A stretch of 64,000 bases of DNA. Source: an uncultured Chlamydiae bacterium. Lineage in GTDB: Bacteria; Chlamydiota; Chlamydiia; Chlamydiales; SM23-39. The first letter of the stretch is position 1; every line of letters begins with the position of its first letter. The notes beneath the pieces are model-generated. The model was given only the letters and a program-made list of their open reading frames with translations. It was not told the origin of the DNA and searched no databases. Where the stretch lies: NCBI GenBank assembly GCA_963730605.1, contig CAVSSM010000001.1:448001-512000 (forward strand), in the 5' to 3' direction. Below are positions 46,669-48,098 of this stretch, piece by piece. Both the position numbers and the translations under genes were made by a program.

Positions 46669-48098
46669 TCGGGATTGTCCTGATCTATTTTTGCCATGTC
46701 CGGTTAAGACCTGGCGATCTGCCCTTCTACCGCAAGCTCGTTCAAGAAAGCGTCGACCTCCGCGGGTCTAGCGCCTTGGAAAAATCGCCGATTCGGCAAA
46801 TACGGCAAAGGGTTCGGAAAGATTTTTGGACGATCAAAGAGGGCGCAAGAGTCCATGGAAGCATCGTTTCCGCTGAATCGGATTTGATCTTGTCGCAAAA
46901 AAAAGAGAAAATGGAAGGGGTTGAATCTTCCCGCGAAATCGAAGCCTGGATTGACGTTGGCGATGGGATGAGACGCCTGACAGCCGAGTCTGGAACCTGC
47001 CGCTTCCCCTCCTGCGACATCGATGCGGAGCATCTCTCCTTTCAGTTCGGGCCAACCAAGTGCGTGGCCCTTCGATGCCATTTTGCAAAAGATGTAAATA
47101 CAATTCAGTTGCTAGGGAGCTTTCAGATCGAACATCCGAAAGGCCGGATATTCGGAGAAAAAGGAACTTGTATCTCCGAGGGAGGATGCAACTATCTCCA
47201 GTTTGAAGATGGGGTTCTTTTCGAAGGTACGCAGGCTCCATTCTCTATCGCCTCTCTCTCTGCGGATGCCGTAATCCCTCATCAAGCAACACTGCCCGAA
47301 GAGATCCGATTTTCGGACAGTGTGCAAATCCAATCGGTCCATGGCCTCCGAGGAAAAGGCGATTTTGCGATCTACCACCAAAACTTCCTCAGGTTATTTC
47401 CAGAGCCTGGCTCCACTTGCTCGATCTTCCATGGCGAGGACCGTGTCGATGCTAGGGAGATCCAGTTCGACAAAGCGGCAAACGAACTCCTCTGCCTTTC
47501 TCCTCATGGCCGTCTTGAAGAGAGCCAGACCTTGTTCGATGCCGACACGGGCCGCGCTCAATTTCTATACCGCGCGCAGGAAGGTTTTGTGAATGTTGGC
47601 TCTGCGAGCCAACGCAAAATTGATCCGAACGAGGCTGCGGAAACACGAGAAGGTCCAGCGGACCTTCGCAGCGAGGAGCAGGTGAGCGCAGGCGAACCGG
47701 CCCGTAGGGACCATTCCCGAATAGGGAAGGCTGACGAGGAGGGTCGATTTTGCAAAGGCGCAGCCAGCCAAAATTCACACAACCTGACAGAGCGTGGTAT
47801 GAAGGGATTTCAGCTGCAAACCCTCCTTTTGGAGGGGAATGTCCGGATCGCCTCCCTCCAACAGAGGAAAGAGAGCTTTGCGATGGCCGATTCGGCAGCG
47901 GTTCATCTCAATCAAAAAAGAATCATCCTCGAAAGCGTTCCCTCCTCTCGGGTTCTTTTCCGACAAGAAGGGCTGGAGATCAGCGCTCCCACTGTCCACA
48001 TCCAAGAATCGGCGATCCAAGGGTTCGGCGACGTCCGCTTCTATTTTTCGCCTGAAGAAAAAACGGCCCTCGAACCCATTTTTTTGAAGTTTTTATGA
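46635..48098 (+). CDS. LptC/LptA-like LPS export protein with a 78-aa MITE-derived insert
   Basis: Between kdsA and lptB; N-terminal TM; beta-jellyroll-like LEGNV.I and G.G.V.F.F segments. Confidence 0.65.
   Translation: MLRRILPSSILVGIVLIYFCHVRLRPGDLPFYRKLVQESVDLRGSSALEKSPIRQIRQRVRKDFWTIKEGARVHGSIVSAESDLILSQKKEKMEGVESSREIEAWIDVGDGMRRLTAESGTCRFPSCDIDAEHLSFQFGPTKCVALRCHFAKDVNTIQLLGSFQIEHPKGRIFGEKGTCISEGGCNYLQFEDGVLFEGTQAPFSIASLSADAVIPHQATLPEEIRFSDSVQIQSVHGLRGKGDFAIYHQNFLRLFPEPGSTCSIFHGEDRVDAREIQFDKAANELLCLSPHGRLEESQTLFDADTGRAQFLYRAQEGFVNVGSASQRKIDPNEAAETREGPADLRSEEQVSAGEPARRDHSRIGKADEEGRFCKGAASQNSHNLTERGMKGFQLQTLLLEGNVRIASLQQRKESFAMADSAAVHLNQKRIILESVPSSRVLFRQEGLEISAPTVHIQESAIQGFGDVRFYFSPEEKTALEPIFLKFL
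47566..47801. mobile_element. IS630-type MITE inserted in frame (234 nt net)
   Basis: TATACCGCGC...AGG..TTGTGAAT ... AATTCACACAACCTGACAGAGCGTGGTA(TG); ends match 27043/43471 elements. Confidence 0.88.

Follow-up and report, generated by a model that had tools for sequence, protein, structure and literature searches.

Palindromic MITEs lying in frame within genes of an uncultured chlamydia, with an element in a putative LPS-export gene

How does a long palindromic repeat come to lie within the reading frame of a conserved gene, and is the peptide that it encodes of use to the cell or only tolerated? The question is raised by a locus in the window analysed here, a stretch of 64,000 nucleotides of chlamydial DNA (genome G000), in which a putative gene for lipopolysaccharide (LPS) export contains a repeat of 236 nt. 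An earlier sequence-only reading of this DNA had compared the repeat to the Rickettsia palindromic elements (RPEs), which are known to add peptides to conserved proteins, and had assigned it to an IS630-derived family. The features of the locus are as follows.

45829 to 46668, plus strand: kdsA (DAHP synthetase I family), overlapping the start of the host gene
46635 to 48098, plus strand: host gene, with an N-terminal membrane helix and a long beta-jellyroll of the LptC/LptA/LptD-N type; a single ORF here, two separate ORFs in some relatives
48095 to 48817, plus strand: ABC ATPase gene, taken as lptB from its position and likeness
47566 to 47801, plus strand: palindromic miniature inverted-repeat transposable element (MITE) of family A, 236 nt with both terminal dinucleotides; the net insertion of 234 nt corresponds to residues 312-389 of the host protein
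47566 to 47634, plus strand: left arm of the hairpin, also present in a 164-nt form
47635 to 47706, plus strand: internal module of 72 nt (24 codons), missing from the element of genome G003 at the same site
47707 to 47801, plus strand: central small hairpin and right arm, also present in the 164-nt form

The kdsA gene, the host ORF and the ABC ATPase gene overlap at their successive ends (46635 versus 46668, and 48095 versus 48098). The best relatives of the KdsA protein, at 71-79% identity, belong to the Chlamydiales or Chlamydiia where named, with one from the Verrucomicrobia, in agreement with the chlamydial host first proposed. LptC/LptA-type function is essential for LPS export in enteric bacteria. 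A search for the host gene in 41 related genomes gave a match in 24, and the Pfam family LptA/LptD_N scored above cut-off in 6 of the 11 ortholog ORFs scanned. The window protein itself matched nothing in Pfam or NCBIfam, and inserts of this kind hide family matches in annotation. Its predicted structure matches LptH, LptC, LptD-N and LptA (Z 14.6-13.3, rmsd 1.8-3.9 Å, 116-138 residues) over ranges that span the insert, the best match being LptH (Z 14.6, rmsd 2.0 Å, 122 residues). MORN-repeat proteins also match the model, with Z up to 13.0, and the LPS-export call therefore leans partly on gene order and Pfam. Together, the Pfam matches in orthologs, the structural matches and the kdsA-lpt gene order argue for an LPS-export gene, as had been suggested.

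The full-length AlphaFold model (mean pLDDT 70.9, from an alignment of 10 sequences) has a helix at its N-terminus, and the body is long and all-beta. Residues 312-391 have pLDDT values below 50 and are flanked by strands 305-313 and 391-409. The insert is thus predicted to be a disordered loop between two beta-strands, with the fold kept, and the LptC/LptA fold appears to have a loop that accepts 78 extra residues. Between G000 and G003, dN/dS is 0.159 for the host gene, 0.131 for kdsA and 0.08 for the ATPase gene.

Within the host gene the element begins with TATA and ends with TATG. It folds as a single long hairpin (-113.5 kcal/mol, z -6.77), a value equalled by none of 200 shuffled sequences. 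The ORF of 487 codons at 46635-48098 stays open once the 234 nt are taken out, so that the in-frame, stop-free insertion of 78 codons described earlier stands. The element is short, has paired ends, lacks a transposase and has copies genome-wide, as expected of a MITE. It is not an assembly artefact, since a metagenome contig (X2), possibly derived from the source sample itself, covers 47602-47979 with 0 differences and matches the long form, and since this site is also occupied by an element in G003. The insert peptide gave no match in NCBIfam or Pfam, plasmid and phage searches gave no match to the element, and an Rfam scan returned three matches, all with E of 2 or more and attributable to chance.

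Comparison with relatives indicates that the element is a derived insertion. When the element is removed, the protein aligns without a gap over the junction to the orthologs of genomes G014 and G023, and the score of the ortholog alignment rises in 6 of 9 cases, is the same in 1 and falls in 2. Two closer homologs (P0017 and P0020) are without the insert; the 78 residues are therefore not ancestral. An empty allele was also found at the DNA level in a contig of 617 nt (X6) that lacks a net 234 nt, has flanks of 417 and 196 nt and shows a TA at the site; this is one contig with a depth of ~3, its letters inspected in part. In G003, which is ~88% identical to G000, and in P0002, a 164-nt form that lacks 47635-47706 occupies the same site. 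The lpt site thus exists in three states among relatives: empty (one contig, X6), with 54 codons (G003) and with 78 codons (here). Two independent insertions in G000 and G003 were considered and rejected because the two copies have site-specific letters in common.

The short and long forms differ by the 72-nt module, relatives of which occur at 28 places in G000, within several MITE families and at times as two in tandem. A similar series is seen at the folC site, where proteins of one 90% cluster have no insert (P0007), 54 codons (P0008) or 78 codons (P0001 and P0009), and where P0018 represents a frameshifted long form. The lpt and folC elements have modules that are 96% identical but arms with 23 differences in 150 bases. 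From these sequences we infer an in-place gain of the module at both loci; it may instead have been lost twice, once at each. Among other bacterial repeats, BOX elements have modular or long and short forms. Long and short forms are likewise described for Correia elements in the available part of PMC2229807.

Family A is distinguished by how often its copies lie in frame in genes. In G000, this is so for 6 of the 7 copies that a filter accepted as full-length, on the same strand and in the same frame, versus 0 of the 23 copies of a sister family as scored by a script rule (Fisher p 1.2e-5). Two members of the sister family lie in the window:

27043 to 27207: sister-family MITE, 165 nt, intergenic, with only its ends in common with family A
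43471 to 43634: sister-family MITE, 164 nt, intergenic, with stops in all six frames

These are the copies to which the element had originally been likened. Similarity of the ends holds (~32 terminal bases, 78-84% identical), but the interiors differ and the two are better regarded as separate, sister families.

The in-frame copies of G000 are found in the lpt gene, in an E1 dehydrogenase (internal), at the N-terminus of FolC, at the C-termini of KdsB and of a protein that we take to be CdaR-like and that has no family match, and in one unnamed protein. The seventh full-length copy is inside a decayed duplicate: the kdsB-pyrG region is duplicated (C1:713608 and C1:727325), and its second copy has decayed with the element retained. 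Outside the count of seven are a 17-codon remnant of family A and a related subfamily in LptD-like and O-antigen ligase genes. Many of the sites are empty elsewhere, those in the E1 dehydrogenase, kdsB, cdaR-like and folC genes in G003, and that in the LptD-like gene in 3 of the 3 genomes having the gene. A palindromic repeat that is in frame in several unrelated conserved genes supports the original comparison with RPEs.

Some part of the element was matched in 30 of 103 genomes of the chlamydial family. Among 401 genomes of the order, the right end was found with at most 2 mismatches in 8, spread over two families, and a phylum-wide DNA search in which 2 candidates were scored per genome matched 4 of 300. 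In-frame copies in other genomes are located in DnaX, PriA, LpxK, LptB, LolC/E and FolC-like genes, and an RNase BN-like site is also hit. Of the 47 family-A copies collected from 11 genomes and one contig, 40 have a length of 3n+2; the sample is biased toward intact copies, since the search patterns were built from G000 ends and 47 of 70 listed elements passed a script filter that set 23 aside. Copies in a long ORF, as defined by a 130-codon rule rather than by annotation and in genomes that are kin, were both 3n+2 and open in 24 of 25 cases, versus 12 of 22 for the others (p 0.001). Each copy has 1-4 of its 6 frames open, and 23 copies are read in the same strand and frame, which is the most hydrophilic open one; at least one copy, in genome G001, is read from the opposite strand. 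Over 18 copies, 12 of the 40 hairpin pairs have, by raw count, changed on both sides. The claim that the family donates new peptide sequence holds as a reading of the DNA, but no sign of a useful function of the peptide was found.

Several further copies are of interest for their positions. A 173-nt copy in G001 (L020, 1469-1641) lies between heptosyltransferase-like and UDPGP-like parts of one 647-codon frame. Others at start/stop overlaps or just past a start codon (L062, L065, L026 and L240) yield terminal extensions, and in kdsB the stop codon comes from the altered right end of the element. Genes of the envelope are frequent among the targets (L072, L216, L228, L065, L071 and L243), including those for LptD-like, LptB, LpxK, KdsB, O-antigen ligase and LolC/E proteins.

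In-frame MITEs of other families are also present. At 875-1076 of the window, a truncated family-B element, with an IS630-like end and the same module, is in frame within a lineage-specific, minus-strand ORF of 464 codons (387-1778). Family B is in frame as well in RecD2 (105 codons), a tyrosine-kinase-like protein, a secretin and an ATP/ADP transporter, and the RecD2 site is empty in each of the 4 relatives in which this region is present; another MITE family is in frame in the linker of a 2-oxoacid dehydrogenase E2. The loci behind these cases are L074 (G000 C7:30663-30979), L075, L077, L078 and L076. At a second kdsA-lpt locus on a G003 contig (L201, C126), of 38% identity, the corresponding gene has a MITE of another kind in frame at a different point; the locus may be contamination, which amounts to 6% in G003. 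A palindrome of 61-127 nt with a GACG/CGTC-type core occurs both alone in ORFs and as a module in larger MITEs (G000 C1:164316, C1:697557, C2:62448 and C1:625925). Elsewhere in the window, 52047-52660 holds two small minus-strand ORFs with no family match, which have the look, in our impression, of a HicA/HicB-type pair.

An intact candidate mobiliser is found in the window:

9954 to 11074, plus strand: intact IS630 copy, 1121 nt, with 8 terminal bases as in family A; 14 copies in the genome

G000 has this single IS630 family, with 14 intact, near-identical copies and TA flanks in 14 of 14. About 20 bases of its left end match family B and only 8 match family A. The assertion that the element is IS630-derived was accordingly not upheld, as these 8 terminal bases are all that family A and the resident IS630 have in common. 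The ends of IS630 loci in genomes G321, G307 and G091 also differ from family A. Neither an autonomous element nor a transposase between family-A ends was found in the genomes and metagenome contigs searched; the right-end pattern gave one match in metagenome contigs, to a MITE, and of 27 DDE_3 loci from 4 of 5 genomes, the 13 inspected for ends included none with family-A ends. Locus L310 was rejected as the autonomous parent, since its IS630 has its own ends and sits inside an element. The outer bases of family A are not uniform, with the left first base deviating in 10 of 47 copies and the right in 5 of 47 (15 of 94 ends). The kdsB and RNase BN-like sites show a clean TA, and at the folC and cdaR-like sites the dinucleotide of relatives is mostly CA. 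Because of the TA ends an IS630-type enzyme is the likeliest mobiliser, at about even odds, and an unseen IS630 parent for family A may exist. As a separate observation, a lineage-specific ORF on the minus strand is interrupted by the IS630 copy at 9954-11074, with open frames at 11035-11922 and 8953-10113. This ORF is similar to those at 387-1778 and 42007-43416, the latter with an internal repeat of ~98 residues.

The explanation favoured here, to which we assign a probability of roughly three in four, is that a selfish, non-autonomous, frame-keeping MITE inserted into a loop of the host protein, was tolerated and was later lengthened in place. Such an element would be able to survive inside genes because its net length is 3n (3n+2 if the terminal dinucleotides are counted) and one of its frames is hydrophilic and free of stops. 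A trans-acting DDE transposase, most likely of the IS630 type, would have cut and pasted it into or near a TA in a beta-turn codon of the LptC/LptA-type protein, where the site, the frame and empty alleles are observed. Insertion probably began with the common 164-nt form of 54 codons, which the 72-nt module would have joined later in place, via gene conversion or a second insertion, to give 78 codons. Judging by the structure prediction and by the purifying selection that acts on the gene, the insert is most likely transcribed, translated as a disordered periplasmic loop and tolerated. Selection would act as a filter, with out-of-frame copies, or those in intolerant sites, being lost.

Besides the failure to find an autonomous element with matching ends, the ends that depart from TA and the bias of the 47-copy sample, one further result counts against this explanation. 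The inserts of G000 and G003 differ at 3 of 160 nt (dS 0.03) and their flanks at 137 of 1230 (dS 0.37; p 4e-5), a contrast of ~2% versus 11% that would not be expected if a single old insertion had drifted neutrally. A tentative addition, which complements the tolerated MITE rather than replacing it and which we rate somewhat below even, is that the filled allele moved recently between species ~12% apart by recombination or short-tract conversion. Over the same 613 nt, G000 is separated by 23 differences from the empty X6 contig and by 64 from the filled G003, so that the insert is missing from the nearer relative. G000 and G003 also have site-specific letters in common, with 2 differences in 150 arm bases as compared to 9 for the nearest paralog, and when 25 repeat sites of G000 were located in 289 kb sampled from G003, the lpt site alone had a 99% identical element. 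The folC insert shows no such excess of conservation over its host (7 of 54 versus 19 of 344 residues). On the other hand, the argument draws on one X6 contig with a depth of ~3 and letters seen in part, and precise loss in the X6 lineage would fit too. No long common flank accompanies the insert: the identical run at the junction is 37 nt, versus a run of 41 nt elsewhere in the gene, and differences restart 2 nt past the element.

An elaborate version of these events would be a two-tier editing of proteins, in which a frame-keeping MITE enters a loop, a module that spans families is then added in place, and a homing-like invasion of the empty site of another species follows, possibly through a non-IS630 mobiliser, as the ends deviate from strict TA duplication. 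Taken as a whole, this sequence of steps is unlikely.

The low divergence of the insert could also mean that the hairpin or the peptide was recruited at the lpt locus, in processing or stability of the kdsA-lpt mRNA or as a functional loop, and that its sequence has been held constant. The arms show 1 synonymous change versus ~10 expected (P 4e-4), and ERIC elements alter mRNA stability according to the available part of PMC2229807. Recruitment is nonetheless quite unlikely, given that the closer relative represented by X6 is without the insert, that the insert length has shifted by 24 codons, that the same peptide occurs in unrelated cytoplasmic enzymes and that the insert is predicted to be disordered.

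Post-transcriptional or post-translational removal of the element, through hairpin-guided splicing, ribosome bypass or proteolysis, would leave a mature protein without the insert but is very improbable. The paired ends do form a long stem that would bring exon-like flanks together, but the 3n length and the bias to a single open frame in genes are what translation through the element predicts, Rfam gave no match below E 2, and an RPE-bearing enzyme of Rickettsia is made with its insert (Abergel 2006, as cited in the part of PMC2229807 available). Least probable of all is that the insertion damaged a gene now decaying in a small-population symbiont, as the repeat-laden genome might suggest (241 of 359 short repeat regions in G000 have terminal inverted repeats), since the frame is intact in two species with dN/dS of 0.16 and two ortholog queries found only one such gene in G000, a genome that is 83% complete.

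The literature search, which covered few subscription journals and no supplements, found no report of such elements in Chlamydiota. The main text of PMC9723776 contains neither "MITE" nor "palindrom", and the accessible portion of PMC9769881 names chlamydiae only in a reference. The present case would thus extend protein-coding palindromic elements, a known habit, to a phylum for which no earlier report was found.

Several TA-ended MITEs of bacteria are described in the available part of PMC2229807, among them RUP, for which IS630-Spn1 was proposed as mobiliser from end similarity only, ERIC, Correia/NEMIS and YPAL. Family A is like these in its terminal inverted repeats, TA termini, long stem-loop and absence of a transposase, and ERIC and YPAL, as presented there, form in-frame fusions as family A does. 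In contrast, the ends of RUP, as portrayed in the same part, match its IS630 and RUP has stops in all frames, whereas family A matches at 8 bases and most of its full copies in G000 are in genes.

The closest comparison is with the RPEs (Ogata et al. 2000, 2002), as summarised in the portions available of PMC10969869, PMC2229807, PMC1779305 and PMC3733652. As outlined in those portions, RPEs and family A are both dispersed hairpin repeats of 100-300 nt in obligate intracellular bacteria, with frequent in-frame fusion to unrelated conserved genes, a single preferred peptide frame and a lineage-specific spread. The excerpts at hand also place protein-coding palindromic repeats outside Rickettsia, in the Wolbachia palindromic element (WPE) and the coding repeats of Methanocaldococcus. 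No family-A sequence matched over the cut-off of the WPE model, and in all, the RPE1, RPE3 and WPE models gave no match over cut-off in 7 genomes. The element works like the RPEs, but by sequence it belongs to an unrelated family that matches none of RPE1, RPE3 or WPE. Family A differs from the RPEs further in its hosts among the Chlamydiota, its greater length (113-299 nt), its mostly TA ends and a nested 72-nt module that alters the insert in place. Many of its sites are empty in a species 88% identical, which makes the insertions recent. The cases in Rickettsia are mostly old, whereas family A provides recent events, a site with empty, short and long alleles, and a genome that also contains an intact candidate transposase. 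Two questions thereby become testable, that of the mobiliser of RPE-like elements and that of the neutrality of their inserts, and the in-place module and the possible spread across species are the parts worth following.
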